A stretch of DNA of 61,065 bases, the filler included, from Sluysia triapertura (Eukaryota): NCBI GenBank assembly GCA_046118255.1. It is 4 parts of 4 records of this genome, joined end to end, with 100 filler letters (N's around TTAATTAATTAA, not from the genome) between each part and the next. Parts side by side here need not be neighbours in the genome. Positions count along the whole stretch, not along the records: positions 27,656 to 49,228 come from JBJNIA010251750.1; 3 more parts are not named here. One strand, written 5' to 3'. The translations under genes and the position numbers were made by a program. Below the pieces are notes generated by a model. That model did no database searches, was not told where the DNA came from, and saw only the letters and a list, made by a program, of their open reading frames with translations. The stretch's first letter is position 1; every line of letters starts with the position of its first letter. Below are positions 15,815 to 60,100 of the stretch, in pieces.

Positions 15815-16340
15815 TTAAGCAAAAAGATAAAATTTGAAATTTATAAATTGTAACTGAAGGTCTGTAGATATAAAATTTATTGAATCAAAAATAAAAGATT
15901 TAATGTTTATATTGTTTGTTCCGTATATGCTGTTTTCTGATGACCATGCATCACTATCTGAAAAATAATCCAAAGTCAAGTTATTTTTAATATAATCGTA
16001 AAAAATATTTATCATATCATTATAAACAGAACCAATATTGTCAAATATCTCTGGAGTTGGTACACCGATACTTACGAATAAGTTTGTGAGTCTAGAGAAA
16101 TGATCAGTTCGGAATGCATAGTTGACTTCATCATCCAGCAATTGATCCTAATTTTGTACACTCACCATCTTGGTAAGCTGTATATGGACAAAGTACAGGT
16201 TTACGACATACATCTGCATTTGCAACGAATTGAATTAAAAGTAGTCGGTTGGACGGGTATTAAATTCTTGAATATATTATTAGGTTTTTGTTCATTACGA
16301 GAATTAATATAATGACATACTGGACACTTATCCAAGCTGT
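15815..16340 (-). pseudogene. Relic ORF continuing the G/T-rich arm of the hairpin module (Cys-rich, then acidic/aromatic)
   Basis: HSLDKCPVCHY..SIRCKCRCMS*TCTLS, followed by ORF 15815-16141. Family unidentified. Confidence 0.3.
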
Positions 16341-16812
16341 GGTGGTCAGCCTTTCAAATTTTATAAAAATCCTTTTCACAATATTACAAAATCATATAAA
16401 CCCTCAAAATCTACAATTCATATTCAAAGTCAGTATAAAACCATATCAAACTAAACCAACACATTGTACATAAAACCATATCCTTTAACAATTTAACATT
16501 CTCACATGTATCTTCTCTGCATTCACCAAAACAATTTATCTACTAAAGTCAATTTATATCCACAGTCTCATAACGTATAAACCACAATAACATTCTAAAT
16601 CATTAAACTGCATTAAAAAGTTATCTAAAGTATTGTATCTCTTATCTCAAAACAACTCAAGCATAATAATATTCCAAAGTATTTAGGCCATAATCATTTA
16701 CATTTTAATAACACTTCAGCTAGAAATACTATCTTAACATTAGGATGAGGTATCATCAAAACTTATAAGTTAATCAGAAAATATCGTGTTCCTTCTTTAT
16801 CTCTAACTTTTA

Positions 16813-17160
16813 AATATGTTAAGAATATTAAGACATAACAGAAAGCTCGTGTACAGAACTTTTTTCAAAGAATTTATGTATTTTATTTTATTATTTTATT
16901 TTATTTAATATTGATAATAATAGTAATATTATTGTTATTATTAATATTACCATTTTACTAATTTACCAATATTTACGTTGAAAATAAGTAACTACCACCA
17001 TGAATGCTGACATTACTGATTAATGTATATAAATTCACGTATATATCTCTAAATCAATACACTCACTACTAACTATATTCTTTATTTTTTCTGGTCATCC
17101 AATCAGAGCAAAAATAACTGTAACTTCTATCTCAATGTCTCTGGTTGGATGACCAATCAA
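16813..17160 (+). repeat. Multi-hairpin module, copy 1
   Basis: Shared block ATATGTTAAGAA..ACAGAAAG..AAGAATTTATG, an AT-rich inverted repeat, and the IR TGGTCATCCAATCAGAG (17092-17108) / CTCTGGTTGGATGACCA (17139-17155). Confidence 0.75.
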
Positions 17161-17263
17161 TGGTCATGTTATGCAGACATGGTTTTTATTTCAAATATTT
17201 TACTAACTTACTACGGTTAAAAATAATTAAAAAAGAAATAAAGAAGACGAAGAAATTGTTGAT

Positions 17264-17593
17264 ATGACTTATTCAATAGATGACCGTAGACCTTTATGTT
17301 TACTGAAATTAAATGTAATTAGAAATGCTACTCTTAATGATGATAATGACTTAATTAAACGATCGAAAAGCTATTTCTCAGATGATAAAGATGATGATAA
17401 TGATCTAGCTAAACGATTGAAGAGTTATTTTATAAATCTTGAAGATGACTATAAGAGCAATGATGACACTGATCATGACGGTGATTATGATGATGAAAAT
17501 GGTGAAGAACACGAAGATTATTATCAAGAAAATTTTAAAGGCAATTTGGAAAACAATACGAATAATAATACTAGGAATCAATTCACACTATAA
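17264..17593 (+). CDS. Acidic low-complexity ORF of unknown function (module cargo)
   Basis: 109-aa ORF with an internal duplication DDNDL.KR.KSYF and a D/E-rich tract, directly downstream of module copy 1. Confidence 0.35.
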   Translation: MTYSIDDRRPLCLLKLNVIRNATLNDDNDLIKRSKSYFSDDKDDDNDLAKRLKSYFINLEDDYKSNDDTDHDGDYDDENGEEHEDYYQENFKGNLENNTNNNTRNQFTL

Positions 17594-19642
17594 AATTCCA
17601 TACAAAACACTTTGGTCGGTATACATCCAAATAACGTAATTTATGAACAAGACTCAGAACTAAATAATCAAACCAACAGTATCAGTAGTGTTAAAGTAAA
17701 ATTTTGTAAATTATACCATAAAACATCATTAGTTATATTTTTTTGTTTTAGATTTTAGAACTAATTCAATTGTAGTAAGGCATACTTTGGAAAAATTTGA
17801 TTCAATAAATGTAACGACATTTTTTAGTAATAAATTTAAAAAATGTGTTATTTTTATTATATTCTCTATTTCCCTCTACTAATATGTTATATAAATAATA
17901 AAAACATAATAATCAAACATGTTAATATTAAGTCTTTTTGTACAATGTTGTCGGATGCTCAACAACACAATTGCAAACCATATTGTCATTTTTAGGTCAT
18001 TTCTTATTTGTATATTTTAAGAATCACACGTTATTTTATTTTATCATGATACTTTGAGACTATATTTTATTAATTAATTTTACTATGATGTATCCTCTGT
18101 AAATTTTATGTTCTTAACGATGTTTATTTTGGTTTAACCCTCTATGATCAATGTAACTTTAAGCTCACAAGCTAGTACTCCTACATTTTACCAAATTATT
18201 TTATTTTGTATTGTTTTATTTTAATTTTATGTTTTAACAAGTTACAATACCACATTTAAATTCATTAATGTCTCAACAAAATGACAATTTTCCAAAATTT
18301 CACACTGGTGCTAATTTTAATTTAACGCTAGCGCATTTTGAGTTCTATAAAAAAAGAAAATTAGTATACAAAAAATTTATATCGACATAAAATTTTATCC
18401 TAAATTTAGATTTGGTCATGAAAAGGAAAATAGTTCCCATAAAACTAATAGTCTTAATTAATCTTCAAAGGTAAAAATATTCCTTTATCAGTAATTGTTT
18501 AAATTGGTAAAAAGAGAGAATTCAGAGTTTTGGTCAGTTCATAAGAAAATTATTCGACGAACTAAAAACATTCATGAACGTTTCTGGCACCCGACAGTCG
18601 GAGTTCAAGTAGAATGTAATTTCATGCAATCTGTTGAACTCAGTCTTCTAAACTATTTCAATTCATTTGCTACAAAAATAACAGTAGGAGATAAATTTAG
18701 TTTTTGTTTTGCCTTAATAGCTTTTAGAAGTAGTGTAATAGATAATGGTCTTTATTTTTATTGTGTTAATTCAGCAATAATGGACCTTAAGTCCTATTTT
18801 CGTTTAATTGTTAAAATTGATTATAATAATTTTAAATCTCAATATGAAATTTTGAATATTGAACGTTTTTTTACATTCTTAAATAAATATTTTAAATTAT
18901 TAAATGATAATATTAAGCTAAAGATAATATTAAATGATAATATTAAGCTAGACATAATTATCCAGTATTTATGTCTAATATTATCGGCGTTATTATTTTT
19001 GCTACAATTGCAACAATTCTTGATTTTATTCTTATCTGATTTCATTGACGTTTTTAATGTTTTTGAATTTATTTCCCATTTCTGTTAATGTAATGAGTAT
19101 TCTTATTTGGTTCATTAATTTCATCAATTGATTCTGCAGTTGTTTCAGTTATCTTTAATAAAGATAATATAATATAATTCATTTAAAATAAGAGTTAATA
19201 AGAATTTATATTATTTGGTCATTATTAAATGATGGTGTATTTATGGTATATTGCTCTATTCAATCGATGCAATTTTTCTTCCGTCAGCGTGATGTTATTT
19301 AATGAAAATTTGTTCGAGAACTATGTTAGATTAATATTGTTCATTGCGTTTAATCAATCTTTTGTTCTTTACTTGTTATTTTTCTAAAGGGTTAATTGCT
19401 CATTTAAATGTAGTTGATTTAATTTCACTAGGCCTACTTTAATATTTTCAAAATTAAAAATAGATATAAACAAAATTCTAAAAAAAGAGCTGAAGATAAA
19501 CAAAATACATTTGCAGGAGCAAAAATGATAAGAACAAAATTCTTGAATCATCATAGCATCCCTAAAACAAACGAAATTTTTTAGTAATTGCAAAAATAGG
19601 AAAATCCTTTCATTAAATTATGCACACTTGAAATGATCCATT

Positions 19643-29275: not shown

Positions 29276-29309
29276 TTATCATTAGAAGTAAATTTTTAAT
29301 TTTTAGAAC

Positions 29310-31101: not shown

Positions 31102-31107
31102 TAATTT

Positions 31108-32393: not shown

Positions 32394-33231
32394 CAAGGAG
32401 TCGATTCGATCAGAATTTGTAATTTTTGACGTCACAACTTTAGAAGATATTCAATGAAAGGCCACCCACGAAAATGGAAGCTAGATTGTCAATTACTCCA
32501 CATAAAGCTAGTTTTATGGTTTCTGATATTGAAATAATAGAGTGACATTATATAAAAGCACCTAATTTAGTGACTGGTAATACTCATACACCAAAAAAAC
32601 GCCGTAGTAGAGATCAATTTGGTAGTGGTAACAGAAATTTTAATAATGAACGCAGAAGATCTTTAACACCATTTAGCAGAAGAATATCCATTACACCAAC
32701 GATAAAATTTAACTATATTTAATTTTACAATAAAATTAATAACTGCAGAGATAACTACATATCCCGCTTTGGTAATGGCAATAATTATCGTCCTAATAAA
32801 CTATCTAACTTCAGAAAAACTGTTCAATTTAAAAATGATATTATATGTTATTATTGTAATAGATTATTACTTAATAAAACGAATAACAGGCGAAATGATA
32901 CCAAATAATGCCAAGAGGATAAAATTACACCGTAAACCATCAAAAATATATCTTAAAACTAACCCAAAACATTTCATATCTTCAACCTTATCACATTTCA
33001 ACATCATACAATCACTTTTTGAACAAAATAAAACTTATTTTCTTTACATTCACCAAATTACACCCTTTTAACATATTAATAACTTATGACCTATCAACAT
33101 TTTCATTTAGAACATTAGGCTTAATTATTCAAAATTTACGTAAAACTAGAAAATAGCATTTAAGATGTATATTAAAAAGCCTTAACATCACAAATTCATA
33201 ATTCTTTAAGACTCAATTGCTTCTACAACTT

Positions 33232-33625
33232 TAATATGTTTAGAAAAATAAAAGAGTTACAAGTAAGATCATGTTCAAGTTACAAAATAGAAAGTTTATG
33301 CGTTTTTGGGATAATAATAATAATAATAATAATAGCATTTTGCTGTTATTATCATTATCACCATTAATAATTTTTATTAATTTTATTTTTAATTATGATT
33401 GTAAAATTTTATCCAGTAACTACCACTATCAGTGACTATTTCATAAAATATATTTCTGATCACTGACACCACTGATAGTAGTGCACTCATCAATTATAAA
33501 GCAACGTGTTTTGCTCTCATTGATTGGCACACCAATATTACAACTTTTGATCTCTATTATTGGTCATCCAACCAAATTACTTTCAACACTATTTTTATAC
33601 CTTTCTCTGGTTTGACGGCCAATCG
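33232..33625 (+). repeat. Multi-hairpin module, copy 2
   Basis: Shared block, (AAT) hairpin, ACCACTATCAGTG/CACTGATAGTAGT, and TTGGTCATCCAACCA/TGGTTTGACGGCCAA. Confidence 0.75.
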
Positions 33626-33769
33626 GGTCGATTTCTTTGCATCAAATTTTTGTTATAGCAAATCATTGAACACGCTAGTTCAAAAAATTTTTATTAGTGT
33701 TTAAAAGCAAAAATTGATCTTAAAAAATTACATAATTAACAAAAAATTCAGACAGTCAAAATTATTAAA

Positions 33770-34850
33770 AAAGATAAAACGAAAACTTTACATTTTTCAT
33801 AAATGAAAGAATACCTTGATTCAACACAAGATAATGCTAATTCAAAATTATTCCAAATTCAAAGGTCATGCCTATCAGTATATTGAAATGAAAATTCTAG
33901 AGACAGGTTAATACCTGATTTAATTACGATTCTATTAATCGACGTTGATTACGATGTAACTTTTTATGTGACTTCATTATTAATGACAAAGCCTTCTCAA
34001 TGGCCGAAATATAAATCACAGATGCTACTTGTTATCAAAACTAGACGAATTAATAGATATGCAAATTACACAAAAACTAACAATGTGATACACACTATAA
34101 CTCAAAGTATAATGCGTTTCAATAACGTTTGGCTAATAAACATGATATCAGTCTTATATGATTATTCTCAAAAGTCAAAGAGATTATTGTATGTAATATT
34201 GTATCTAAAATACTCGTCAAATGATGTCGGACAATTGATCTACCCACTGCTCACAAATACGAACTAATTGATCATGAACATTTGCACTAAATCAATGTTA
34301 TTATTGCAAAATATTAGTTGTCAAAGTCAGTTTTGATACATCAAATCAATATATCATTAATAACATCAATGAAATTGTTCAGCCGTCAACTAAATTTTCA
34401 GATCAATTTGTCTTTAAGCCTTCGTTAAATACAATTTCCGGTAACCGACTACCAATGATGCAATACTTCAGCCAACTGGATCGTTTTAGCAGATGTATAA
34501 TGTATGGAGCACGTTACTGTATTTTTATACAATGTACAAGATCCGTGACACTCCTGATTTTGAATTGAGTTAAAAAACTGGTGAATTCATTTAAGCATGG
34601 GGATCAACAATTACGTGGATAATTTCTCACCAATGCAGCGGACAGCATTTACAATTGTTCTAGTATTATTTATAATGTAATTTTATTTTTTTCTTTAAAC
34701 TTTCTAGATACAATTTATTATTTATCATTATTTTACAGGAATCTGCAACCTGCAAGTTCGGCAATGTGTCTGAAGTTAATAGCATCAATATATAACACGC
34801 AAAATACAAAATTATGTGTAATTAAATTTAATGTGTATAAAAATAGGACT
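33770..34850 (+). repeat. ~1.1-kb cargo segment duplicated at 48050-49070 (degenerate spliced gene)
   Basis: Collinear and highly similar to 48050-49070. Contains a GTAATT..TTTACAG intron-like segment near the 3' end. Confidence 0.85.
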
Positions 34851-36639
34851 TCATATTTTCTTGCTAGTCCCTTCATAATTATGTAGTTATCTACATAGTT
34901 AAAAGTTTAAATATAAATTTGTTCAAACGATTCAAATCCCATGAGTTTATAGGCACAATTTATGAATCAACGAATCTTACCCCCTTTTCAAAATTCTGAA
35001 ACCTAAAGAAGAATTGATTAAACGTGCTGCGAATTATATGATATATTTAAAATCTTATATAGTGCATTTGAATATACAAAACCTTTATTGATGGATGACA
35101 GAGCTGCTTTTTTGAAGACGTGTGCTGTATTGGGTGTACTCGGTTGTCATCAGAAACCTTTAATATTACATTATTTTATTTTATCTTCTTACAAAGAAAC
35201 TTCATTTCTTAAATAGAAACCATATTTTCTAAAAACGAACATTCCTTACTAAAAATAGAAAATAAGTTTGTAAAATGTTTTAGACATTCTCTAATTCTAC
35301 TCGCCTATGATTGGTTGTTTGCATAATTTTCCACAGATAATCATAAAGAAACACTAATTTTAGAGGCCATCTTAACAAGTTTTAAAGCAATTTCGCCACC
35401 TTCTAATCTATCTTGTTTCTTGGAAAGGTTTTCAAGTTAGCAGCTTCGCAATTTGGCTCACAGACAAGGCGCTGTTTAGTTACTTCTTTTTCAAGTTTTC
35501 CATGATATCAGTAAGTTGTTTTTGACAAGGACGATTTATCCCAGAGAAAATAAAAATTATATATTGCACTTGAAATATTTTGTAAACGAAATTTTTAAGC
35601 GCGACACAGTGGGGAGAATAATTTAAAATTAAAATTATTTATATAACAATTAAATGAAGATATTAATTGTGTTTTTCCTTTGTGTCTTATCTACTTTAAT
35701 TTCTATAATAAATATTTGGTATATTCAATTGTTTTCATTTCAATCTAAAGTTTGAATTAAACTAATACATAAGTCACATTTCAGTCATAAATATCTGAAC
35801 AAGACTAAAGATGAAAGACCCTCTTAACAAAATTATTAAGGTAACGTGAATAAAAATGAATTGCGTAATTAAATAGAAAATATTTAAAATTAGATATACA
35901 TTTCACGATTCATCCATCTGTAGATACAGACATACTATCTTTACGAGGGCCCTGCTCAACTTTAACAATTAAGAACACCGTATCAGTTAGTTATGAAATC
36001 AATCGGATTTTATAGTCGCGACTGTAATTTCTGTTTGGGTAAATTGTAGAGAGACAATACCATTATTAATTCATGAAGGTTAGTTCTATTGTTTGTACAT
36101 TACTCAATCCAAATCTTGGGTCAACTAAGAATTAATTATAAAATTGATCCTATATTGTTTTAACTGATCTTCATGAATACAAGTGTAGTGTTTGGGATTC
36201 TTGTCTCGTGCATATAGGCCACAAAGTTAAAGAACATTGTCATGACAGAAAAATGGAGATGATTTTAGTGGTGGAATTATGTATTTGAAGTTATTACAAA
36301 ACATGAATGGCATCAGATTGTAAACGTATATTATAAAATGTTCTTTTAGATTATGAAAAATTGTATTACAAAAGTGAAAATGACATAATATATATACTTT
36401 AACATAACATAACATATACTTTAAAATATCATAATAATATATTTTAGATTTATGAAAAAAGAACAATGAACAGAATAATAATCTATTTTTATTTATGTTA
36501 CACAAACTAAAATTTTTAAAACTTATGGTAATGATTCTTCGAATATGCCACCGAGTTCTTAGCTTTATATCACTAAATAAATAAACGCATGTCATTAATT
36601 TAATAGTAGAATAAAAATAAGTAAAATTTACTTTTATGT

Positions 36640-37700
36640 CGTTGGATGTCGGTTCCTCGGATTGTAGGATTTCGCAATCGTCTGGACGTGTTTTACCTTG
36701 ATTAATATCATCATCTTGTGTTGCAGAATTGTCCAGACTTGATGGAGGCTTTTCGATTTTATGAAATACGAAAGTAAGCACAGAAACTAATCTAATATCA
36801 TTTACAAATCATGTAGCGTTGCAGTAATAAGGATCCGTATTTTTTATATCATTGTGGTTGACGACTGAAACGATAACTTTGACATCCAATGCTTTACTGG
36901 AAAAATCATTAGTAAACATAACTTGTGTATCAGAACCATCATTAACAAAGGTCAAAACTTTAAGCATACATGTTTCATCAATATAATGCATCAATGCTTC
37001 GAATATTACTTTAAAATTAACTTTATTTTTAGTATAGTTCGACATAGTCCAAACATAAAGTTTCAACTGTGACGTTAATTTTTAATTTTTAATGTGACGT
37101 TAACAAATTGCAGCTCATAACACGAAATCCTAAATTTATTTTCAACTTCTCCATAAAATATTGCTGGATGAATTTGTACTTGTTTGAACATCTTGTTATT
37201 TATCTGTTTTTTATTACTTAATTTGGATGGTAATATGCATAAAACTCCTCCGGTCTCATCATGTAATTCATAACATATCATTTTATCTACTTTCTCAATT
37301 TCTAAATGTTGTATAGGATAAAAAATTTCTTTAATTTGATTTGTATGGCGAATATCTATAATATTAAGTACCGTTAGTTGATCGATAATATCTACATTAC
37401 TAGATGAACGCATTATTTTCAGACTTAATCCTTTACTCATTCTTATTAACTGAACGTACTTTCATATTGCTAATTCAACTGTGGGAATCAAAATCATTAC
37501 ATACGTCAATCGTTGATCGTGAACTACACACATTGTTGAATAAAAGGAATACCGTAGGGAAAAGTATTTCCACTGTTGGTTTCACACAAATTAATATCGT
37601 CTTTACGTTTTAGTAATAATGGCATAGCACGTTGTTGAATTTGAGTTGGCTTTGAATATTTGAATTATGAAATGTAATCTAAAATTCCGGATAATTTAGC
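36640..37700 (-). pseudogene. Chimeric pseudogene: DEAD-box helicase N-terminal fragment followed by an OB-fold-like region
   Basis: FKYSKPTQIQQRAMPLLL.RKDDINLCETNSGNT (Q motif, decayed motif I), MILIPTVELAI* (motif Ia), then in frame MSKGLSLKIM..ICYELHDETGGVLCIL. Two stops and a frameshift. Confidence 0.65.
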
Positions 37701-38004
37701 TACAGTTGTTATCATCGTAGAAGAATTGTATAGGCTTTTATCACTAATATAAGTTTTTCACTTTAATGATTATTTTTTTCAGTAAAAATCGTTAACTAAT
37801 AATAATTCCTTTTGTATCGATAAAAATGTTTTAACTGAAATTGTTACTGCATTAAAATGATTAAATTATCTTTTTAACTTTTAGTCAAAACATCATCACA
37901 AAAATTGTTTTTTAATAGTAAATTAAATTTTTTCTGGTCACTTTGTGTACCTTCTTCTTTTTATTTTTAAATTCTATATCTCAATCTTTAAACATCAATT
38001 TTTT

Positions 38005-38470
38005 ATTGGCTGTCCAATAAGTGATTGTTTTCTGTGTCATAAATAAATTGATATATTACATGATGATTGGACAGATGTATATACGAATTTTTATACACCA
38101 TGGAGCAAACATGAATAGTGAGATATGAAATGAATATGATTGGGCATCCAATTAAATGTGACTGAATGTAAAACAAAAATGTAATTAATTGAACGTCCCA
38201 TCATTTGAAACAAAAGACGCATGGTAACTGTCACCAGTTAACAGTTTGATACTTTATAATGAATTAGTTAAATGAGCTGTCAACTGGTGAAGATCGTTAA
38301 TCAATTAAAGATAATAATGATGATAGAAATGAATAATATTAATTACTACTTTAAAATAATAATAACATTTTATGAAAAACATAAATACAAAGAAAACGCA
38401 TAAATCTTTTCTTAAACATAAAACACGAACGTTCTGTTATTTTTTGATTTGCTTTCTTAACGTATTATCT
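38005..38470 (-). repeat. Multi-hairpin module, copy 3 (inverted)
   Basis: Reverse complement of the shared block at 38395-38470. Hairpins at 38231-38290 (TCACCAGTTAACAG/CTGTCAACTGGTGA), 38138-38203 and 38010-38074 (CTGTCCAAT/ATTGGACAG). Confidence 0.65.
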
Positions 38471-39880
38471 ATTTAAACAATACTTTATTTTTAAAAGTTT
38501 ATAATGGTAAATTTTGTGAGGTTATGAACTTATGCTGTTATAAATTAATGCTGCATTTTTTCTAGAAAATTTTAGAGTGTAATATTGATGTTGTAAGCTG
38601 TGAGTAAAAGTTTTGAATGGATGATTGAATATACATTAATGGTTTTGAATGTAATTATGTTTTGGATGTTACAGATTGTGAATTAAGATGTTTTGAGGTA
38701 GGAAAACTGATTTTAGTGGATCTAAAGGAAATAAAATATAAAAGGTTCAGATGAAAAATAGTTAAAGTGTCATGGAATGTGATTTCATGTGAAGTGCGTT
38801 GAATTAAATTTAAAATATTTCTATTAATTTTTTAAAGTAATTCTTTGATGATTTTCGATGATGGGTATGATTTGGATATAAAATTTCATGTTTAGAATGT
38901 TTGAAGGTATTACCAATTGTGAGATGTTCTGAAGTGTGATTTTGTTATATATTGTTAAAATAAAATTTTACAATATTGAGTTAGAAACCACAATGATCGT
39001 CATTTACGATGAATTTATATTATATTTTCATGTAGTAAGTATAATAATTTTCCTTTCATTAATATATTAAACATGACATAATTTAATGAATATAAAATGG
39101 CAGAATCTGTTGTTTATACCAAAAATGTTAATCTAAAACTTCTAGCACATTCATTGTTTAATTCATGGAATGAATTAATGGTAGAAAATTAAAAAATTCA
39201 ATTGTATCAGCTTGTTTTGGTTCAATAAACGAGAATAAGAATTTATCTAAACTTAATGCTTGCGAAAAAAATTTCGTGATGACTGATCCAATTCAAAGCA
39301 GGAAGTGCAATTAAATAATGATTCTATTCTTGATGAAAGTTATTTCGAAGATGTGGATTATCTGGAAGATAAATAAATATGTTATGTTTTTATTCGACAA
39401 ACTGAAAACACCAAATAATATTTTGTAATTTTTGGCCATACTATTCAAGTAGTTTGAAAAGTATATGGTTTAAGTTCAATATATTATAATGATGACACTT
39501 GCTATACATATATATATATTTAACAAATGCAGCAATATATTAATTTGTTAATAAGCAATTAGATATTTTAAATTTTTAATTCTCAATTTTAATTTAAGAT
39601 AACCAATATCTTAATATATCTGAAACGATGTAGTATAAATTCGAATAATCGAGTACTAAATATAAATTTCCTTAATAAATATAGGATGCAATTATTCTTC
39701 GTAGATAATTTGTAACAATATTTGCATTTGTTATATTAAATTATGAAAATTAATCTATGATAATAACGAATTTGTGTAAATATTTAATAAAATTTGCTTT
39801 ATAATAAATTTATTCGAAATTAATGTTTACTTTTAATTGTATATTATTTCGTAATTTTATTATTGTATTATATAATTCAG

Positions 39881-41187: not shown

Positions 41188-41430
41188 TTGAGTATGAATT
41201 AGAGTTAAAATCAAACAGAAAATGGTTTTATAACTACGAAAGTATATCTGTACAGTTGAATAGTAAAACTGGAATTGTTTCGAATCTAGATTTGTGTTTA
41301 ATAAATATAACCAGTTTTAATAAAACAGATCAAATGTCTCTGATGTTTATAAAATCTTCTGGATATTATAAAATAATATGTAATAAAGATGATGAATTTT
41401 ATGTATATTCAAAACTTTATGTCAGTCCAA
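41188..41430 (+). CDS. Ig-like exon B of the same gene
   Basis: ttcag|..A|gttaga, 243 nt open, phase 1-1. EYELELKSNRKWFYNYESISVQL..SSGYYKIIC..SKLYVSP. Confidence 0.7.
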
Positions 41431-42502: not shown

Positions 42503-42751
42503 ATACTTTATTCATTAATGTTGTTAAATATGATACAAAATATAATTTTATATGTTCAAAAAATACATTAAATATCAGTAGTATATTATTTACATGTTCA
42601 AGAAATGGGACAGAGATTAATTTACCATCTGAAAATTTATTAACACTGGAATTTTATTTTAATAATTCTGTGGGATTGTACTCTTGCAAATGCACGGGAT
42701 ATTATAACATAGTTGTAAAAATTACAATAATAATGAGTTTCTATTATCATA
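42503..42751 (+). CDS. Ig-like exon C of the same gene
   Basis: ttttag|..A|gttagt, 249 nt open, phase 1-1. NFICS..SRNGTEI..LLTLEF..SVGLYSCKC has the G-x-Y-x-C motif. Confidence 0.75.
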
Positions 42752-45700
42752 GTTAGTAATAATTGTTTTAATGTTTTATATGTAATGAAACCTTTAAATG
42801 GAAATAGAAATAATTTTATTTCTGTCTTAGAAAAAGCAAAAAATAACGTAATTTTATTTTATAATTGTTAATAATGTTAATAATTTATAAATTTAATTGC
42901 AACTGTAAATTTAATACTGCTATTAAATCATTAGAGAATTTATAAACAATTTACTAGTATTGAATTTTATAATTAGAATAGTTATAAATTTAACACTATG
43001 TAAGTTTAATTACGGTTAGAATAATTTGTAATATAAAATTGTTGTAACACAAAAATAATTTATAATTTCAATATTTATCATACAAATTTAATAAAAATGT
43101 AATATTTATTAAATTTATTAAAATAAACCATTTAAAATCGTCATTTTCTAAAAAGTAAACTTATTTTCTGATAAGGAAAACTTAGAACTAAAAATAGAAA
43201 AGTTTCTCGAATATTCTAGAACGTTCAACCTATTCTTATTGACTGATGACTAGTACATAAACTAGCATCAGTTTAATGATAAGCACTATTTTAATAAGCA
43301 TAATGTCCTAATTGTAATACAATAGGACCATTTGAAATCTTACGTAAAATATCATTTTATTTCCTAGACCGTAAAAAGGCTAGGTCAATTTGTAATTTTA
43401 AATTCTCAATTTCCTAAACACGTAAGCCTTAAGCTTAAGGTTAAAAAATCATTATTATTATATAATTTATATTTTGTTTGTAAAGGATTTATTTCTTGTG
43501 AATAATATAATTTAATGATGTTAAAATCTTATTATTAAAATCTTCAAAACTATTGATCAAACCTTAAAAAGGCTGTTTCAACTTATAAAATAATCTTTGT
43601 ACTGACAGACCGTACAAAGGCTGTCTTAACTTTCAAATTTTGTTAACTGATAATTATCCTAACATTTTTATTTCTAAGAAATTCTAATTAGACCGTCATC
43701 ATTTTTTGATATAAAACGTATCTAATAGCCGGACTCATCTTATCTATTTTGCTAAGTAGGTTTCTTTTAAGTTAAAACCATAGCAATATTTAAAGAGTTA
43801 AAAGATTATTAGTAGCACTTCTATCCTGAACAACAAGGACTAGTATATTAGCTCATACCACCAGTTAAGTCTAATTTAAAGTGATAACATTGATAGAAAA
43901 GTTCAGAATAATTATAAAAAGTTATAAAAGTAATTTGAATTAATAGTAGAGAGCAAGAGTTCGTATAAAATTTATAAAGTATAAAAGAGCAATGAGACAA
44001 AAGTTTAATAAAATAAAATTAAAACGCCTAAATATCTAAAAATTTAGAAGAAACAAAGAGAATTTTACATTAACTCATACATTAAAGCACATAATACATA
44101 ACTTTTTATGTAATATAATGATTTTACACACACACACACACACAGAAGTTTAGTATTTTTATGTAACGTAATATTATAAACTTTTCACAAAGATTTGTAA
44201 GGTTACAATATTATTGTACAATAATCGAGTTTAAATATCATAAGGCAAAAATTACTTATGATAAGACATTTGGCATAAATAAATGAACTCCAAAAATAAA
44301 CCTTTATCTAAACTAATTTCTTACATTTTATTAAGAGAACCTTTGAAATTTTATATATATAAAATTAATTGCACTTCCACCTCGAACAGCTGAGACGATT
44401 AAAAACTTCAAATTTCGGAATGGTGCCCTGATAAATTTAATTTTTAAGTAATTCTAATAATCATAGACGGACATTTTAGTGAAAAGATTTAAATACTAAA
44501 TGAAAGCAAAACAATAAAACAAATATTTAAGAGTACAATCTTAAAAAAGTTTAAAAAATTGAAAAAATATATTTCTTCTTAAATAAAATCTTTGAAACAG
44601 TTTTGACAATAATTAAATATTACAACTAAATGTTTCACTTTAATTAATGTAATGTATTATTTTATAAAAATTTCGACAAGTGTTTCTGAAAGTATGCAAT
44701 ATTNNNNNNNNNNNNNNNNNNNNNNNNNNNNNNNNNNNNNNNNNNNNNNNNNNNNNNNNNNNNNNNNNNNNNNNNNNNNNNNNNNNNNNNNNNNNNNNNN
44801 NNNNNNNNNNNNNNNNNNNNNNNNNNNNNNNNNNNNNNNNNNNNNNNNNNNNNNNNNNNNNNNNNNNNNNNNNNNNNNNNGTGTCTGTCATAATATTAAT
44901 TACTAATTATTATTAGTTACAGATTATACTAATAATTAGTAATATAATAATAATAATCTGTAAATAAATAATTTATGTGTGAATATGTATGTTGAATTAT
45001 ATACAACAATAAGAGTTTGAAAATTATAACTAAGAAATTGTTTATAATAATACAATATTAGATATTGCAATAGAATTGACTATAGAGAAAATTGATTGGA
45101 GAAATTATTACAGAATGAGCTGTTGTCCAAAATCTAGAGCAAGAAAAATACTACGTAAGATGTTTCTTCACTGTATAATTGCACTTGTTAACTAACTTAA
45201 TTATTTTGAATAACATGTATTGAAGTGAGGCGATTATTGATTGTGTTATTTAAATTAAATATTTATCACTTTATTGAGTTATTGCATTTGGACATAATTA
45301 TATTGAAAATTCTGATAAGTATGCACGGCTAATAATTTGTTTCGCGTCTTAAAATAAAATAAATAAATTTATAAAATTATAATTCACCAAAATTAAAAAC
45401 AATTTCGAAAGATTTTCCTTAATTACGAGTGGTTTGTTTTGGTTAAAGCTATTGTTTTATTTACAAGCGTATTTTGTTATCAATAAATTTTAACGAACCA
45501 GTAATTTGTTTCGTCTTGTGAAACTAAGAGAATTCGAATTTCCCTAACATTTTCTCTCTCTTACATCAGATAGAAGTAAAACTCTGATTTCCAGATATAA
45601 TTAATAAATAAATTGATGCTACAAAGTCAATATTTAACGCGAATGTTATTAAATTAAAGAAATTTTAAATACCGAATAATTTTGTCTAATAACTGCCCAA

Positions 45701-46980: not shown

Positions 46981-47489
46981 TCTTATGAAGATGTGATGGC
47001 CAACCCAATACTTCAAAAACCTTATTTCATCAATATATAATAAGATCATTCTTCAGAATGTTCTCAATTGCTATTATCACCAAACATACACTTAAAAAAT
47101 TAAATTGAAACACTTAAAATTAATTCAGCATTTCACCCATAGCATTTCACCCATCTTTCTATCAAAACCTTTTTCATATTTTATTTCTTCAGATCCACTA
47201 GAACTATTCTCATTTTAATATATTTTAAGCTACAATTTGACACAAAATCACGTCCACATCCAAAACCACCAAAACACATTAAATTTTATTCAAAACATTC
47301 TAATCTACAATTTTATAATACCAGAATTACCAACTTACATCTTAAACTACCAAAAATACATCCTAAAACTAACCCAAAACATTTTAAATCTCCAACCTTA
47401 TAACATATCATTCACAACCACATTCGAAATTTATCAACAAACATCTTTCAAGCAATCCAAACATTCTAAATTCACAATTTCTTATAAAT

Positions 47490-47870
47490 GCTAGATATGT
47501 TAAGAAATGTAAAAGAAAGACAGAAAGATTATGTTGAATAAAGATAAAGAAGTTTATGTGTTTTGGGATGATAATAATAATAATAACATTTCGCTGTTAT
47601 TATTATTATCACGATTATTAATTTTTATTATTATTATTATTTTAATTATAATTATCACTATTATCATTTTGTCTTGCCAAGTTTGTATGTGCATAAAATA
47701 AATCACAACTACCACTATCAGTGTTGACATTTTAGTCGTCATACACAAATTTTCATCAACACTGATAGTGGCTTCAATCGATCAATAAATTACTGTTGCT
47801 GATTATTACTGGTTGTCCAACCAGAGTGATTTTCATCGTGATTCTTATTTACCTCTGGTTGGACAACTAA
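47490..47870 (+). repeat. Multi-hairpin module, copy 4 (best preserved)
   Basis: Hairpin 1 at 47570-47610. Perfect 16-bp IR CCACTATCAGTGTTGA (47712-47727 / 47756-47771). Perfect 15-bp IR GTTGTCCAACCAGAG (47812-47826 / 47853-47867). Confidence 0.8.
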
Positions 47871-48049
47871 TCAAAGTAGGCATCAATATACAAAATTTCG
47901 TGTTAACCAATTACGACTCAGCAATTAAAAATTTGTATCAGATAATGAAAAAGAGGTGTCTTGTCAAAATTTACGATTTGGAAATTAATTTTAAAAATTT
48001 TCAGCAACAATTAAAATTAATACAAAAGTTTGCCAAAAATTTTTAAACA

Positions 48050-49070
48050 AGATAAAACGAAAACTTTACGTATTTTATAAATGAACGAATACCTCGATTC
48101 AATACGAGATAAAGTTCAAAGGTCGTCTGTCACTATATTCAAATGAAAATTCTACAGAGAGGTTAATACCTGATTTAATTACGATTCTATTAATCGACGT
48201 CGATTACGATATAACTTTTTATGTGACTTCATTAATAATGACAAAGCCTTTTCAGTGGCCGAAATGTAAACTAGACCATTTCATAATTATATCTACGAAT
48301 TAATAGATATGCAAATTACACGAAAACTAACAAAAGTTGTCCACACTATAACTCAAAGTATAATAAAGTTTGGCTAATACACACGATATCAGTCTTATAT
48401 GATTATTTTCAAAAGTCAAAGTGATTATTGTATGTAATAATGTATCTAAAATACTTGTCAAGTGATATCGGACAATTGCTCACTAATACGAGTAAAATAT
48501 TAGTGCAAAATATTAGTTGTCAAAGTCAGTTTTGAAACATAAAATCAGTATATCAATAATAACATCAATGAAGTGGTTCAGCCTTCAAGTAAATTTCGAG
48601 ATCAATTTGCCTTTAAGCCTTCGTTGAATACAATTTTCGGTAACCGACTACCAATGGTGCAATACTCCAGCCAACTGGATCGTTTTAGCAGATGTATAAT
48701 GTATGGAGCACGTTTTTTTATAATGTATTTTCATACAATGTGCAAGATCCGTGACACTCGTGATTTTGAATTGAGATATATAATAGGAGTTAAAAAACTG
48801 GTGAATTCATTTAAACATGGGGATCAACAATTACGTGGACAATTTCACACCAATGCAGCGGACAGCATTTACAATTGTTCTAGTATTATTTATAATGTAA
48901 TTTTATTTTTTTTCTTTAAACTTTGTAGATACAAATTATTATTTATCATTATTTTACAGGAATCTGCAACCTGCAAGTTCAACAATGTGTCTGAAGTTAA
49001 TAGCATCAATATATAACATGCGAAATACAAAATTGTATGTAATTAAATTTAATGTCTATAAAAATAGGAG
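48050..49070 (+). repeat. Second copy of the cargo segment (includes ORF 48573-49016)
   Basis: Collinear with 33770-34850. Confidence 0.85.
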
Positions 49071-49228
49071 TATGGAGTAGCCAAATGTTTTTGTTAATGA
49101 TTTTATGTAGCAGAATATTACATTTGATTTTAATAATTTTAAAGGTAATGCGGGCTTTTCTTTATAAAATATATAACCACAATAATGCCTTGCAATTTCA
49201 AAGATATCATAAATGAATCTTGATAAGT

Positions 49229-49328: not shown

Positions 49329-49401
49329 ATAATTATAATAATATGATATATTAATTTATATTGCGCTACTCTCTGCCGCAAAACAAGTACTCGTCCAACG
49401 T

Positions 49402-49435
<34 letters not shown>

Positions 49436-49840
49436 CGGCTGGAAAGCGGCTTTAGCACAATGTGATTTTTGACTATTGCCATGAATCTCAACTTGGTGAA
49501 CGACGAGAGTAACTCTGACTCTCTTTTAATTAGTAACGTGTTTGAATGAATTAACCTACTATTCAGCTAAACTACAGTCACGGGAACGGGTGTCACTTTC
49601 GAATAGCGGGGAAAGAAGACCCCGTTGAGATTGATTCTAGTACGACTTTGTGAAGAAAAATAGGAGGTATAGAATAGGTGGGATTGAAATATCACCACTC
49701 TTATCTTTTCGTTACTTACACGGTAAAGCAATAAATCTGGTTTCGGCTAGTATCTTGTGGACTTAAAAACATAATCTTCTGATGTGCTTGAACTGTTCTG
49801 AAAACAGTGTCGTGCGGCTGAGTTTGACTGGGAGAGGTAC
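49402..49840 (+). rRNA. 28S: Degenerate 28S rRNA pseudogene fragment (domain IV-V region)
   Basis: Conserved blocks in order: AATCCGACTGTCTAATTAAAACAAAGCATTG, GAGTAACT.TGACTCTCTT, AGCGGGGAAAGAAGACCC.GTTGAG, GAGTTTGACTGGG, with deletions between them. Confidence 0.93.
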
Positions 49841-50741
49841 TTTCAAAATGTGACAATGTTACGAAGCATGTCGAATCTGATAATGAAAAATTTAGTTATC
49901 TTAATTAGTTTTTATAATCTAAAATTAAATTTATTTATGCTGTGATGCTTAAGTATAATTAATGTATATGTTAAATTAACGCTCATGGAAATACCAACTC
50001 AAATACGTTATTGAAATCAATATGCGTCCCAAAACGTATTATAAAAGATTTCTATGAAAATCCATTTATTGTCTGATTAAATTTATTTTTATTTTAAGTT
50101 GATGAATTATTATAACAGTAAGCATTGATGCAATAGTTACATTAAATTTTGATTAGATTATGTTAATAATATCAATGGATTGTTTGTCACAAATCCCACT
50201 ATCTTTGGATAATTTCAGGAGACAATATGAAATTTAATTATTAAAATGCGTCGGCTTTTGCCTATCTAAAGAATGGACAGTTTATAAGTAAATATTTCCG
50301 CCTTTTCCAATTTTCAATCTCCTAAGCGATTACCAAACTGTTATATAAATAATCAGATTTCTGTAATAAAATCAGAATAAGGCAGCCGAACAAAAAGAAG
50401 AAAACTTTATAAAACTTTTGTGATAAACGCATTTATAATAAACATTGTGATTGAGAACTTATCTTTAGCAATTGATCAAATGTTAAAATAGTGGTTTTGT
50501 TTTTGTTAAGGTTAGCAAACCTACGTTCTTATTATTTTATTATTGTTAATATAGGAATCAACATTTATTGCGTTGTGTCACTCCTGGCTTTTTACAGATG
50601 CAGTGATTGATAATTTAGAATTTGTGTATCTTTACTAATATCTGTGGACAGATTGCAAACTGTATATTGTTTTGAAAAGTGATACATAACACATTCTATT
50701 TCTTACATTTCGTAAGCAAGTGCGGATTGGTTCAGTAATTT

Positions 50742-51532: not shown

Positions 51533-51936
51533 TTGGGTTGGTGCATAATTGGTGCACAATTATGAAAAATGCATATTGATCAAGAATAAAAACCAAACAA
51601 AAATTCCAGATAACAAAAATGAATTTATTAAATCATTACAAAAACAAATATCTCAGTAACAATCGCTGAGATATCCTTTGCCACAATCAATCACTTCCTT
51701 ACACCGTTCTGATTGTTTGCCAATCCCACGTTTGGTGTTTTTGGTCGGAAAATTCTTCAATCCACGTTGTTATTTCTTCTTCGTTTTCAAATTTGAGACC
51801 AGAAATATGGTTTGACATGGGCTAAGTCTGGCGAATACGGTGGATGAAGAAGAACTTCTCAGGCAAGCTTTTCAATAAGCAACTTTCTAATGATTTAATA
51901 AATCCATAAACCGCACGAACTTATGCACCAACCCAA
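51533..51936 (-). mobile_element. Internally deleted mariner (DD34D) with both TIRs and TA TSD
   Basis: TA|TTGGGTTGGTGCATAA ... TTATGCACCAACCCAA|TA. The minus strand gives EVLLHPPYSPDLA..GLKFENEEEITTWIEEF. Same family as 4481-4821. Confidence 0.92.
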
Positions 51937-54037: not shown

Positions 54038-56509
54038 CTCAACTCACTTTATTAGTGACTCTTTCTTAGACGTTTTGCTTAACTTCACATTAATATTATA
54101 TATTTAAAACAAACTGCAATATTTATTGTTGTAATTAAATTTTAGATGTTTAAATTATGATATAATTTTGTGAAATAAACTTATTTTAAAATAAATTCCA
54201 TGAATGAGTTAATTAAGTATTCGACTTATGAATGAATGAAATATCAATGTTTCTACATTTAGTATTTAGCATTGATTGTTAAGTTAATATATTAAGTTAA
54301 TCAACTTATTTACATGACCATTATTCATTTTCCCCATTATTCATTACAATATATCCTCTTCCACCACTTCATGATTTGATTTAATGTATTATCAATAAAA
54401 AATCAATAACGTACTTATAAAGTTTAAAAATTATGGAATTATACTGAAATATGAAAACGAGTTTTAGAATGAGTTTTGTATGGTCAAATTTATTCATTTT
54501 TGATTATTTAAACAAAAATGGAAATTTGGAAATATTAATTGCCCAAAACGCGTACCTAAATAATTGTGTACTTGAAAGTAAATCGATAAAGATTTTCCAA
54601 CCTGATATTGCCTAGTATTATCGCAATTTAACACACAGTGAACATGGTAAAATGCTTTATTTCTATTTTGAACTTTTTACATTAAATAATATCCAAATTA
54701 CTGATAAACTCATAAATTTACTTTCGATATAATTCATGAGGTGACTAAGCTTAATCTTACGAGTAACTTTCGCTTTTTGTATAAGAAACCTATAAATGAA
54801 TTGAAAATTAAATGTTTCGGTTGTTCCGCTAGTAATTTTCCGATATATAATGGTGAAGAAAATCAGTATATTGTTAATAAAACAAGACTAACAAATGTAC
54901 TTTCTCATGGTTTTGAAGTGTTTCCAGAATCAACAAATGTGTTAAATTTAATAACCAATAAATATGTGAAGTGATGTTATGATTATCAATGCTGACATTT
55001 ATGTCCAAAATACTTAATGCTTTAATAATCTTCTTTTTCGGATCAGATGCTAATATATTAAACAATTTTATTATTTTATTTTTATTAAGTGTTATTTTCA
55101 AAATGTTTTTGACGTTATGTTTTTAGTTGTAGTTAAGTACAATAAAAGAAAGATTAATCTGAAAATTACTATTTCTCTGATAACCATGCCACTTGTTCTT
55201 GTGAATATTACAATGTTCAACAATATTAATAAAAGTTTTAAATATTATTGTTATTATACATTATTAAATAAATATAATTTAAGAAAATATAATCAATAAA
55301 AAATTTTAAAATTAAAAAAGATATTAATATTTAAAAATTAAAGAAAATATTTTAATAATAAAAGGAAATGTTTTTGTTTATATAATTAGTACTTGAGGAG
55401 GATAATTTTTGTTTAATTTACTATTTCGAGTAATTATTTTAAATAATTTAATATTTAATTTTAGGAAGTTTAATGTTTATCAAGTAAATTAAAATGGCGT
55501 AAGGCATTATTTAAACCTTAGAATTTTTTAGGGAACTCACAGAGAAAAGTTAGAATTCCGTAGGAAAATCAGAAACATTGGCAATATATAATTGGAGAAA
55601 TTTTTAGTGAAATTCACGAAGATCCATGCATTCAAAGTAACTATTTCCATTAATAAGTTTCCGTATTCACTGTATACCAGGAATACTAAAATACACTCAA
55701 AATATTAAACATTTTTGTACCAACACCTTAAAGAGAGTTGGGTAATTTTCAAATTAAATTTACTCATAGTCAACTAAGGTTGAATTATCAATTTGCATAT
55801 TTTTATTATATTTTTCGTGTACGAATTTTCTTCTAAACTATACGTTTTATACGAATTTTTTCTTGCAAGATACACGTTAATAAATTTTGTAGAGTTATTA
55901 GTTTATTTTACTTAAAATAATTCATTGCTTTCTAAACAACTTAATAAAAGGGTTATGAAATTTGTAAACTGAAAATCAAAGTTATTGTTGAAGTAAAAGT
56001 TTCCTAAATTGAATTATAAGTTATAAAAATCCTAATAAATCGTATCTATTAGGCGGACTGTGGTGACAAACCTATAATTTTTAACAAATTTCTGTAACGT
56101 TTTTTTAACACTAGGAAATCACATTTACCTTCAAAATTTACAATATACATTTTAAAACTCTTTAAAAACATTTCCTGTTCTTCCACATGGTTCAATACTA
56201 ACATAACCAAAATCTCACTCTTCAACATTACACAATTATTTTTTAGAATGTACCAAAACATAGGCTATATGTACCTTCTTCACTTTCACTAAACCACACT
56301 ATTTTCAATCCTTTTTTAAGTCACAACCTACTAACATCTAAACATTATTTTCATTCAGAATATCAATGTATATTTTAAAATTCACATAAAACATTTATAT
56401 ATTACCTCAAAACACTTAAGTCATAAGTTTCCAACACCAAAATTATTCTTTCATTTAAAACATTATAAACATTATAAACCTTTTAACATACATCTTAAAC
56501 AATTAAAAC

Positions 56510-56822
56510 ATTTTGAGAAAATTAAATAAATTTATTCAAGGAAGATCACGTTATAATTAAGATGAAATTTAAATGATAATAATAGTAATAATACCACAGT
56601 TGTTATTATTATCACCAATATTATTTTCATTATTCAATTTTATCAATTTACTAATTTTATTACTACTATCAATGGTGGCACTATGAGTTGCTAGGTATAA
56701 AGTGTTGTCATCATTGATAGTGGTCGACTTCTCAATATGATATAAATTTCAGTATATTATTGGCTGTCTAATCAGAGTAACTCGTTTCATTATTTTTATC
56801 ACCCTAGTTACACGGCCAATAA
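56510..56822 (+). repeat. Multi-hairpin module, copy 5
   Basis: (AAT) hairpin; ACTACTATCAATGGTGGCA/TGTCATCATTGATAGTGGT (56662-56724); ATTGGCTGT../..ACGGCCAAT. Confidence 0.75.
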
Positions 56823-56957
56823 GGATAGTTCAATAACACTGTACTAAAAATACTAGCAAGTATGTACAAATTTTTTCGTTAATTGTGCAGCCAATCAGTG
56901 CAGTACAGCGACTCAATAAACTAATCAGTGATATTTTGTCATAAATAGAAAACAATA

Positions 56958-57165
56958 TTGAACAAAGACGTTTATAATTACTGATAATAGTGTATTAATA
57001 AACAAACAATAAGCTGTTATTAAAAAACAATTCTGAGCAAAGACGTTCTCAATTACTGATAATGTTGCATTACTAAACGAATAATTATCATTAATTAAAA
57101 ACATTAGTGAACAAGAACGTTTTCAATTATTTATAATAACGTATTATCAAACAAATTAAGCTCAT
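56958..57165 (+). repeat. Three diverged ~75-bp tandem units
   Basis: GA(A/G)CAA..ACGTT...AATTA.T.ATAAT recurs at ~56960, ~57034 and ~57109. Confidence 0.65.
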
Positions 57166-60100
57166 TTTTCGATATATTGATGATTACATCAATAAAGTCA
57201 ATAGATTATCCAGATCTGATAAGAGACAAACGTTTCGTAAAACGATTCTCAAATAATCAAACATATAAATATAAATGTAATGACTCCTATGACAAAAATG
57301 TTAATTACCTATCCATCAAATGAAAATATATTGATAAATTTAGATAAAAATGATCAAGAACATGATATTAATGATTGTAGTACTGAAAATAAGAAGCAAC
57401 ATATAAATATTATCAATGATGAAGGGTGTAATTCCAAACATAGTTTGCGAATATCTTCTCAAAATAGAGACATTCATTGCTCGTTTTCTGATGAGGTGGT
57501 TAAGTATCTAAATATCAATCAGCTTAGTAATTGAAGAGACTCTATAAGTCGTTCCAAGAAAGGCAGTTTTGAATTAAAAATGAATGAGAAATGAAAAGAT
57601 AATGCTCCTATAGTATTAACAGGTTGTCTAATAATGCGCACAAATAATTGTAATAGATTTGTTTGTTGATAGTGTAACAACTAAACACATCTTCGAATAT
57701 TTGCCCAATTTACTTTACTATATCCAAGATGATTTTCAATGTAAGTGGATTAAAAGTGATAGACCAGCAACGATTATTACAATGTACTTATTTATTCGCA
57801 TATCTTCGATCATAGACTCTATGATAATGTTTTAAAGGAGATCACACCCAGAAAGCTAAGACAAGAAGCAATGTATTACAGAATGATACTAGATTCTGTG
57901 TAAGAATCAACTACTTATGATCAAAATAATGTTACAAGGAATTCTGAGAATGCGCAAGATAATAATTTAGCCCTGTAATCAACAAAGTTTACCCATGTTG
58001 TTAATATGTACCGAATATTCTGTTCTTCAGATCCAATCAGAATGGTCAATGCCTAAAATTCGGAAATACATGCATACTATCAGTCAACTTCAAGAACCTA
58101 CATTTATCAACAGCTTCCAAATATCACATCGAAACAGGTTGAAGCATTTATTATCCAGTATAACTACTCAATTTCTCACGACAGAAAAATTTCCGAACAC
58201 GAAATCAATGCAAGAAATCAATATTATCGAATCGAATAAAGTAATGATTTATATATTCCATAAGGAATTTTTATAATTTATGTATTTTAATTTATATTTT
58301 GAAACGTGTGACTTTACAAAATGGCATACTCTGGAAAATTTAACATTATTTAATATAGTTATGTTATTTATGAATAAAATTAGGAATTTTTGTGATTTTT
58401 TATTTACTTTCACTAATTTAAAAGTAATTTTCATTATATATCTTAATCGAAGAACTTTATATTTTAAAATTTCAACAAAATTTAATAAATTTAATAAGCT
58501 AGTATTCATAAAGTCATTACACAGACAGACTCATTTGATATTTTGTAAGTAAGAATAAGTTTTTAATAGAAACACATGCGATTTTATTGTTTAATATAAA
58601 CGTGTTCGTTTTAGATTTTTTAAATTGTTCACTCTAACTCTAATTAGTTTTGTTAAAGAATTTAAGCCTAAGTTAAATAAAATATTAAAATTTTGTATTA
58701 GATTAAATAATTTTAATGTTAAAAGGATAATAAAAAGTTCACTTTTAAAATAGTTAATAATCTAAATCTCTTGGAACCTACTATAATGATCATTACTGAT
58801 TTTCTCCAGATGTATTTTTGAGTATGGTATCATTGAATTGCTTATGATATTTTCCCTTCTTTGAGTACTAATTACATTCTGTAGTGAATAATAGTATCAC
58901 CTTGTGCTCTAAGTAATGTATCATATTTCATCTAACAAATCACATTTTGTCATGTAGCACGTATTAAAGATTCATCAGAAATTTCATATCTAGTAATATG
59001 TGTGTTACCAGTTATTGTGATAGCTGAAAATGTTTACATATTTATTTACTTCTGAGAGTCAATTTGTAGCTAATTTTCTTCTAGAACAAGCACTAAAGGA
59101 ATCCAGTTTTACTTAAACAAAGATAAACATAAAGCATATCACTAATTTTAAAATGTCGACAATATATATGTCTTAATACATACTCGAGATTTAATAAGTG
59201 ATTGTTTTACAAATTATCGGAAAGGCCATTCTTTTGATTTATCGAGCTATTGATGACCATTTCGTAAATATTGTCGAAGATTCCCGATATCCACAACTAC
59301 TTTTGATGATGATGATGAAAGATCCTTAAGTCACTGTTTTACATCAGATCGTACTAAGCAGAAAGTAGGTCAAGTAGATGATTTTCGATTGAGTAAAATC
59401 AAAAATAAATTACATAGCCATATTCGATATAGAATGAAACAAAAAACGGATAGAAGCATTTTCTTATCATACCCCTTGAAACAGATACTACAGGAAAAAA
59501 TGAACATCACAGACAATATACGCGAAATTATAAAAATAAACAAAATAATGAAAAAAATTGTTCAAAAAATTATCCATTTAAAAAATACTACGTTTATCTA
59601 TTCAAAATTTTAAATTAAATTTACTTATTATTAATGTGTCAAATTTTAAAAATAAATTAATCTTGACATTAAATTTAACGAGACATGGAGAAAACGATGT
59701 AACGTTTGAATTTGAAGATGTTTCTCTTACACATATTTTAAAAATTGCTTTCTATTGAAATTCTTTAATTGACCTTACAATCACTTTATCAATTTTAGAA
59801 TTATTATGATCAAAAAACAGTATCAAATTCAAATCTTAATACGATCATTATTTTTTACTATTATTAATACATCCTGTTATTAAAATTATACTTATTAAAT
59901 CTTCTCAATATAAAGTATTTTTACAATATTTAATTCTAGTGTCTACATTAATAATTATTATGTTTTTCACACTGCTTAATAATATTTCTCTATAATCCCA
60001 TTATTCCAAATTTATAGGTATTATTACACTTTATTAATAATCGCTTATTATATAATAATTAATTTTACTTTACTTATGTTGCAACTTTGAAAATTACCAA

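Follow-up and report, generated by a model that had tools for sequence, protein, structure and literature searches.

Genes inside the U3 region of a long terminal repeat (LTR) are known from some retroviruses, as in the case of sag of MMTV and nef of HIV. In LTRs more generally, U3 is less conserved than R and U5 and commonly contains tandem repeats, and the poly(A) signal has a G/T-rich stretch downstream of it, as outlined in PMC3601003. The CsRN1 clade of Ty3/Gypsy elements is found in flatworms (PMC3601003, PMC2582038); its LTRs average ~330 bp and begin with the 5' integrase motif TGTGGYG by the account of PMC3601003 (Table 3), and its target repeats are given as 4 bp in PMC2582038. In planarian genomes, giant Gypsy elements predominate, and these carry many captured domains. 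For the Burro elements (PMC6431247, PMC11410931), which belong to these giants, RING, BIR, BCL2 and MATH domains and accessory ORFs have been described, and PMC6431247 presents the captured domains as part of the internal polyprotein or of an ORF upstream, and not of the LTR. The BEL/Pao Flow families of Schmidtea are also planarian LTR elements (PMC3118150), and both they and Burro are compared here by description only. In the crapaud element of Podospora, one conserved LTR half is combined with many U3 halves, giving recombinant LTRs and many solo copies; these U3 halves are shorter than 200 bp, and captured genes go unmentioned in the account of PMC10787394, as far as it extends. The Retand/Tat elements of plants bear accessory genes antisense to gag-pol near the 3' end, which PMC11963269 locates between pol and the 3' LTR, so that a solo LTR would not carry them, while Retrosat2 has long LTRs and an extra ORF outside them, according to PMC3485330. 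The literature searched, which leaves aside Repbase and the 2018 Schmidtea genome paper (it may describe such LTRs), contained no description of gene-bearing LTRs in flatworms.

We analysed a window of 61,065 nt from Sluysia triapertura (GCA_046118255.1), which consists of four joined parts, has a G+C content of ~25% and is divided by three N-TTAATTAATTAA-N spacers that presumably represent contig joins. Because a Pumilio exon at 231-644 (-), whose top matches are from Dugesia japonica and Polycelis, and a DEAD-box cargo fragment described below match planarian sequences best, the host of the repeats is, by sequence, most likely a triclad flatworm. A single sequencing run (X1) contains 0.59 of the words of the region, and no RNA runs were among the listed holders. 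Five copies of a repeat in this window are, on balance, best read as the LTRs of a diverged Gypsy- or BEL-type retrotransposon family, probably reading opposite to the direction originally assumed, in which R/U5 is conserved and U3 varies and carries genes.

The original prediction had described a triple-hairpin module dispersed over three pieces of the window in at least five copies. Each of the five was recovered by a profile built from the other four (leave-one-out 5/5, E values 2.4e-21 to 5.1e-40 in the window), confirming that the copies are homologous, and a profile search of the window detected no sixth copy. Pairwise identity among the five is 51-61%. The GC-skewed regions at 20 kb, 28 kb, 30 kb and 60 kb were considered as extra copies and ruled out by homology comparison. 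While the hairpins themselves were confirmed, the module is not free-standing: it forms the middle of a longer repeat, whose homology continues ~450-530 bp leftward through a C-rich arm, present and homologous in all five copies, to a common end, both of which had been overlooked. This end, TGTG(G/A)T, lies at the homologous position in four of the five copies, with unrelated flanks, and the fifth copy (33 kb) is truncated; the leave-one-out matches of three copies begin exactly at the TG-end base.

In the 47 kb copy, the left end TGTGATG and the C-rich arm occupy 46992..47494 (+). This stretch is G/T-rich on the - strand and would correspond to R/U5 if the element reads on that strand. The conserved block follows at 47495..47567 (+) and contains, on the - strand, CATAAA and then a T-rich run, an arrangement that is found on this strand in four of the five copies and may represent a TATA-like box or a poly(A) signal, judging from the motif. 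Next come the three hairpins: an (AAT)n/(ATT)n inverted repeat at 47569..47611, a perfect 16-bp inverted repeat with a 28-nt loop at 47712..47771, and, at 47810..47869, a hairpin with 17-bp arms, each of which is a degenerate ATTGG-N4-CCAAT double CCAAT box. The cargo, a decayed gene-like sequence taken as 47880..49071 (+), is common to the 33 kb copy. That copy (32911..34850, +) lacks about its first 50 bp and has hairpins at 33422-33482 and 33559-33623. The inverted 38 kb copy (taken as 36230..38992, -) has its TG end, TGTGGTT, at 38992, a hairpin at 38231-38290 and two CCAAT hairpins. The 56 kb copy (56059..58417, +) starts with TGTGGTG at 56059, has a hairpin at 56662-56724 and reaches at least 58417; three tandem repeats of 74-75 bp (56939..57166, +) directly follow its CCAAT hairpin.

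The 16 kb copy looks complete by its ends and homology: 1830 bp long (16338..18167, +), it begins with TGTGGTG at 16338, contains the third hairpin at 17092-17155 and an acidic ORF at 17231-17593, and closes with CA at 18167, making it a candidate solo LTR of the TG...CA type. The CA is followed by CAAGC (18168..18172, +), the same 5 bp that precede the left end (16333..16337, +), a candidate target-site duplication. Taken by itself, this exact 5-bp repeat, seen in one of four copies, has a chance probability of 0.045, and at least one such repeat among four copies would arise by chance with a probability of 0.33. The 16 kb and 56 kb copies align over 17469-17883 with a score of 91, against a mean of 40 and a maximum of 68 in 100 null comparisons, which puts the end of the 16 kb copy beyond 17883, and within the next 500 nt past this point the chance of a 5-bp match is 16/1668, or ~0.01. 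When each flank is read on its own, the longest open frames (44 codons in one flank, 9 in the other) share the same register, for which the chance is 1 in 3. By eye, these flanks (15818-16337 and 18173-18380, -) also show a cysteine pattern like the end of a RING finger, along with other stops; a RING reading gave no Pfam or PDB match. Right-end candidates at 49112, 58521 and 36308 were not better than chance (probabilities 0.74, 0.28 and 0.99), and 58521, which has one mismatch, conflicts as the right end of the 56 kb copy with a weak alignment that continues to ~58670. No terminal sequence is common to the right ends. The shared TG end and the one 5-bp target-site repeat point, as sequence signatures, to insertion by an integrase-type enzyme.

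To characterise the hairpins, both strands of the whole window were scanned for stems of at least 12 pairs with at least four G-C pairs and loops of up to 60 nt. All six distinct hairpins detected lie inside the copies, with loops of 25-35 nt, and the three hairpins of the 47 kb copy fold with z values of -4.6 to -6.5 on both strands. The arm pairs cited in the original prediction (GTCATCC/GGATGAC, GTTGTCC/GGACAAC, CAGTG/CACTG and CAATG/CATTG) were found in the sequence, and its remarks that some hairpins are not intact and that loops are unconserved agree with a decayed hairpin 2 in the copy at 16813 and with long loops lacking any common motif. The co-variation of the arms was also borne out: of the 15 pairs of the third hairpin, 7 have changed on both sides across six sequences (the five copies, one of which contributes a second unit). 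Only 4 of 500 shuffles matched these seven two-sided changes and 0 of 500 matched the covariation score, with a control that ignores relatedness and a structure derived from the alignment used for the test. On the other hand, the statement that most mismatches are G-T did not hold, as the 16 stems comprise 271 Watson-Crick pairs, 19 G-T, 16 A-C and 24 other mismatches (p 0.74, G-T against A-C). Since A-C on one strand is G-T on the other and the two counts are similar, neither strand is favoured. In a two-strand folding test, four of seven hairpins folded alike on both strands, and the stronger strand varied among the remainder. Neither the mismatch counts nor the two-strand folding thus provides the strand asymmetry that would support a structure maintained in single-stranded DNA or RNA.

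Template switching, as reported in 10.1101/2021.04.15.439925, can both give rise to such stems and preserve them, with compensatory changes that span several bases. Given that it can yield compensatory changes, covariation alone is no proof of folded RNA; here we observe covariation that comes without strand bias, and co-varying arms in general need not mean that an RNA is folded. All seven matches to ATTGG-N4-CCAAT (up to one mismatch) lie within the copies; in 30 shuffles, the whole window contained 1.9 matches on average and at most 7. CCAAT boxes bind NF-Y. In Rfam, no window match reached the gathering score, and only sub-threshold miRNA matches were obtained. The hairpin module is likely to be the internal promoter region of the LTRs; the candidate promoter and poly(A) signal features in the sequence are the CCAAT pairs, the CATAAA with its T-rich run and, on the - strand, the G/T-rich arm.

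The cargo differs between the copies, as predicted, but falls into three types and not four, since the copies at 16813 and 56510 have ~400 bp in common, which stand behind different front parts. The cargo of the 33 kb and 47 kb copies has 1.1 kb in common (from 48040), 89-94% identical and frameshifted, in which silent changes are not clearly enriched in any frame. Near 48884-48960, the 47 kb copy has an intron-shaped GT..AG stretch on the cargo strand, the intron calls in this cargo type being pattern matches of a kind that also occurs on the opposite strand. The frame of the 47 kb cargo had no homologue in protein searches. As for the DEAD/OB chimera proposed for the 38 kb cargo, a decayed N-terminal fragment of a DEAD-box helicase was confirmed at 37480..37730 (-) (planarian DjVLGB, E 1.7e-06; Pfam DEAD, E 0.041). 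The OB fold is a weak lead: the 128-aa ORF after the DEAD fragment (37078..37461, -) is OB-fold-like, scoring 0.91 to RMI2 clusters at a recognition of 2156, which is below the usual level; searches found no sequence relatives of it, viral ones included, and its AlphaFold model (pLDDT 32.8) is unusable. The neighbouring frame at 36230-37081 found no match among 1.84 billion representatives, and searches including Pfam and PDB lent no support to the OTU-like cargo. In agreement with the original remark that no Rep/helicase or transposase for the module is visible, none of the 151 ORFs of at least 55 aa in the window hit reverse transcriptase, integrase, Rep or helicase families, and the sole transposase matches among them are DDE_3 fragments on another piece.

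The copies are also mosaics. In a tree of the five left arms, built from sequences at 48-64% identity, the 47 kb and 38 kb copies group together (support 99), as do the 56 kb and 33 kb copies (support 87), whereas the cargo groups 47 kb with 33 kb and 16 kb with 56 kb. The conflict between the two groupings indicates recombination. The overall pattern comprises a TG end, a conserved part of 0.8-1 kb next to cargo that varies, mosaicism and, in one copy, a TG...CA unit flanked by 5-bp repeats. These are the traits of LTRs, and we infer that the copies are likely LTRs of ~1.8-2.7 kb, mostly solo LTRs, of a triclad family. The LTR reading is a well-supported hypothesis, with one good target-site repeat; neither a full-length element nor a foreign relative was found. 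No paired LTRs and no pol were detected around the four intact ends within the window, and no primer-binding site or polypurine tract was evident there, an absence expected of solo LTRs. Motif scans yielded 5 and 34 viral-contig loci and 13 metagenome-contig loci, none of which (0/52) matched the five-copy profile at E 10, indicating that these were chance matches.

Compared with the systems described at the outset, the conserved R/U5 and the variable U3 are general LTR traits that are found here as well. Flatworm hosts are shared with CsRN1, whose 5' motif is matched exactly by two of the four ends and with one mismatch by the other two, unless the motif here is a reversed 3' end; the present copies, however, are at least 1.8 kb long and carry gene cargo, and the target repeat at the junction of the 16 kb copy is 5 bp or, in the other reading, 3 bp, instead of the 4 bp of CsRN1. 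Target repeats of 5 bp are typical of BEL/Pao. The host group and the captured sequence recall Burro, where the captured domains have another location, and the recombinant halves and many solo copies recall crapaud, where the variable halves are far more compact. The antisense accessory genes of Retand/Tat are comparable to the antisense cargo proposed below. With moderate confidence, the repeat behaves like an LTR whose variable half carries genes, and it is not assigned to any named family. It is likely to be an unusual variant of familiar mobile DNA and not a new replication system. From the original proposal, the mobile element that carries genes and may have a bidirectional promoter agrees with this picture, and the structure kept in single-stranded DNA or RNA is not supported by strand asymmetry.

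An unlikely alternative is a DNA transposon that has TG ends, is non-autonomous and depends for its movement on an integrase-like transposase of the Ginger or Maverick type, with a long terminal arm bearing an inward promoter and with gene capture of the Pack type. TGT ends also occur in Ginger, as PMC2836005 describes, the intron-shaped stretches of the cargo would need no special explanation, and the copies at 33 kb and 38 kb are oriented towards each other at a distance of ~6 kb. These two copies are, however, just 51% identical, and an inverted second arm was found for none of the four copies within the searched 1.3-6 kb, all scores lying inside the null; 12 bp at the 38 kb end match, in inverted orientation, a site at 36852 inside an open frame, and this match was set aside. 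Ginger elements have terminal inverted repeats of 40-270 bp and 4-bp CCGG/CCGT or AT-rich targets. Such repeats scored above the null in 0/4 copies, and the CCGG/CCGT target of Ginger1 is present at 0/4 left flanks; AT-rich 4-bp targets were not seen either.

It is also possible, if improbable, that the copies represent an undescribed element that lacks inverted arms, has TGTG...CACA ends and 3-bp target repeats, and encodes a replication or integration protein that recognises the hairpins. The junctions of the 16 kb and 56 kb copies both allow a TGTG...CACA reading in which the 3-bp repeat is exact, the covariation is real, and no relative turned up in any collection tried. But the TGTG...CACA pattern was recognised only post hoc, it occurs at two sites within 4 kb for the 56 kb copy and at no site for the 38 kb and 47 kb copies, and a mobilising protein was not found among the 151 ORFs.

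The proposed relationship to Helitrons or Helentrons, with hairpins marking a rolling-circle origin or end, is highly improbable. Helentrons/DINE-1 share hairpins, a microsatellite and possibly an OB cargo with the present copies, and they can carry RPA and OTU genes (PMC4067079, PMC6431247); Helitrons do capture gene fragments, and the OB-like ORF would be a weak lead in this direction. They differ by their subTIRs, a palindrome 8-35 bp from the 3' end, a TT target and the lack of a target repeat, as described in PMC4067079. Here, the hairpins sit mid-repeat, 450-900 bp from its end and not at a terminus; the first 60 bp of the copies have no inverted match of the subTIR kind; the four left flanks end in AAGC, AAGA, GGAC and TCAT and show neither T-richness nor a TT target; and one copy has a target repeat. 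The unsupported OTU and the mismatches without strand bias argue against this relationship as well; no Rep/helicase hit was obtained among the 151 ORFs, as would also be expected of non-autonomous copies.

Duplicated host promoters, spread by gene duplication and not by a mobile element, are very hard to credit: two-way host promoters typically have CCAAT boxes in both directions, but the sharp common TG end, the target repeat, the insertion into a coding frame and the decayed cargo do not fit such an origin. Scarcely credible, finally, are endogenous segments of a multipartite single-stranded DNA virus with a common stem-loop region; the shared region with different single genes resembles the common region and single genes of nanovirus segments, and a Rep-bearing element is known from a planarian, yet the loops are long and lack a common motif, the shared TG end is linear with unrelated flanks, the DEAD fragment is of host type, none of the 52 viral and metagenome loci is homologous, and the OB-like ORF has no viral relative.

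Returning to the LTR reading, several features bear on the direction of transcription. The - strand of the arm is G-rich, with a GC skew of +0.48 to +0.70, and so resembles the sense strand of a second LTR-like family in the window (29250-31850), which is G-rich after its TATA box and whose gag-like frame was recognised by eye and had no match in searches. The reverse direction is further favoured because the CATAAA and T-rich run read on the - strand in most copies, because the tandem repeats and the duplicated CCAAT hairpin sit on the cargo side, and because only an antisense orientation would let introns of the cargo persist when the element is reverse-transcribed. The forward direction is favoured by TGTGGTG, which equals the 5' motif of CsRN1. 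From these sequence features, the RNA of the element probably runs opposite to the direction first proposed.

In the mechanism that we propose for the LTR reading, the cargo would be U3 and the G/T-rich arm, ending in CACA, would be R/U5. The CCAAT hairpins and the CATAAA block would form a two-way promoter that would also transcribe, in antisense, the gene pieces captured in U3, so that their introns would not be lost when the element is reverse-transcribed. Where RNAs of different subfamilies are packaged together, strand transfer between them could swap U3 cargo against R/U5, and LTR-LTR recombination would leave solo copies. The arms would likely co-vary as symmetric binding sites that are matched by template switching, with selection for folding being optional. 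Tentatively, and with some doubt, we suggest that the LTR serves as a portable gene cassette, in which a symmetric hairpin promoter may drive the retroelement one way and a captured, intron-bearing U3 gene of host origin the other; subfamilies might swap genes at strand transfer, and each solo LTR might drop an expression-ready gene, with promoter and poly(A) site, at a new place. If whole small genes do reside inside the LTR, then their capture, doubling with each replication cycle, swapping between subfamilies and dispersal by solo LTRs would follow from ordinary retrotransposition.

Several other repeats and gene fragments were observed in the window. The second LTR-like family is present at 27656-32900 (+) and 60074-61065 (-), with ~1 kb in common (score 696), and both copies end in GCAACA (31101; 60077). 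The first copy has a TATA box near 29479, a GC skew that changes sign near 29250, a primer-site-like TGG motif at 31108, which we take to resemble the end of tRNA-Met, and a decayed gag-like frame at ~31850-32900, seen by eye only, for which a gag search gave no Pfam or PDB support. Short tRNA-like stretches at 32290-32355 and 29165-29200, possibly SINEs, were noted by eye, and ARAGORN called none. At 39808-42756 (+), cysteine-containing open frames resemble, by eye, exons of host surface proteins and had no Pfam match. A decayed 28S rRNA fragment lies at 49343-50100 (+) (Rfam LSU, E 4.2e-36). The DDE_3 (Tc1-like) transposase fragments are located at 7605-8731 and 10140-10331, with a 200-bp inverted repeat at 7605-7807/8504-8731. 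Another short repeat has ends common to 4479-4802 and 51557-51938 (94% identical), and a 208-bp repeat at 6361-6566/12248-12455 (91% identity) carries a terminal (ATT)n run.
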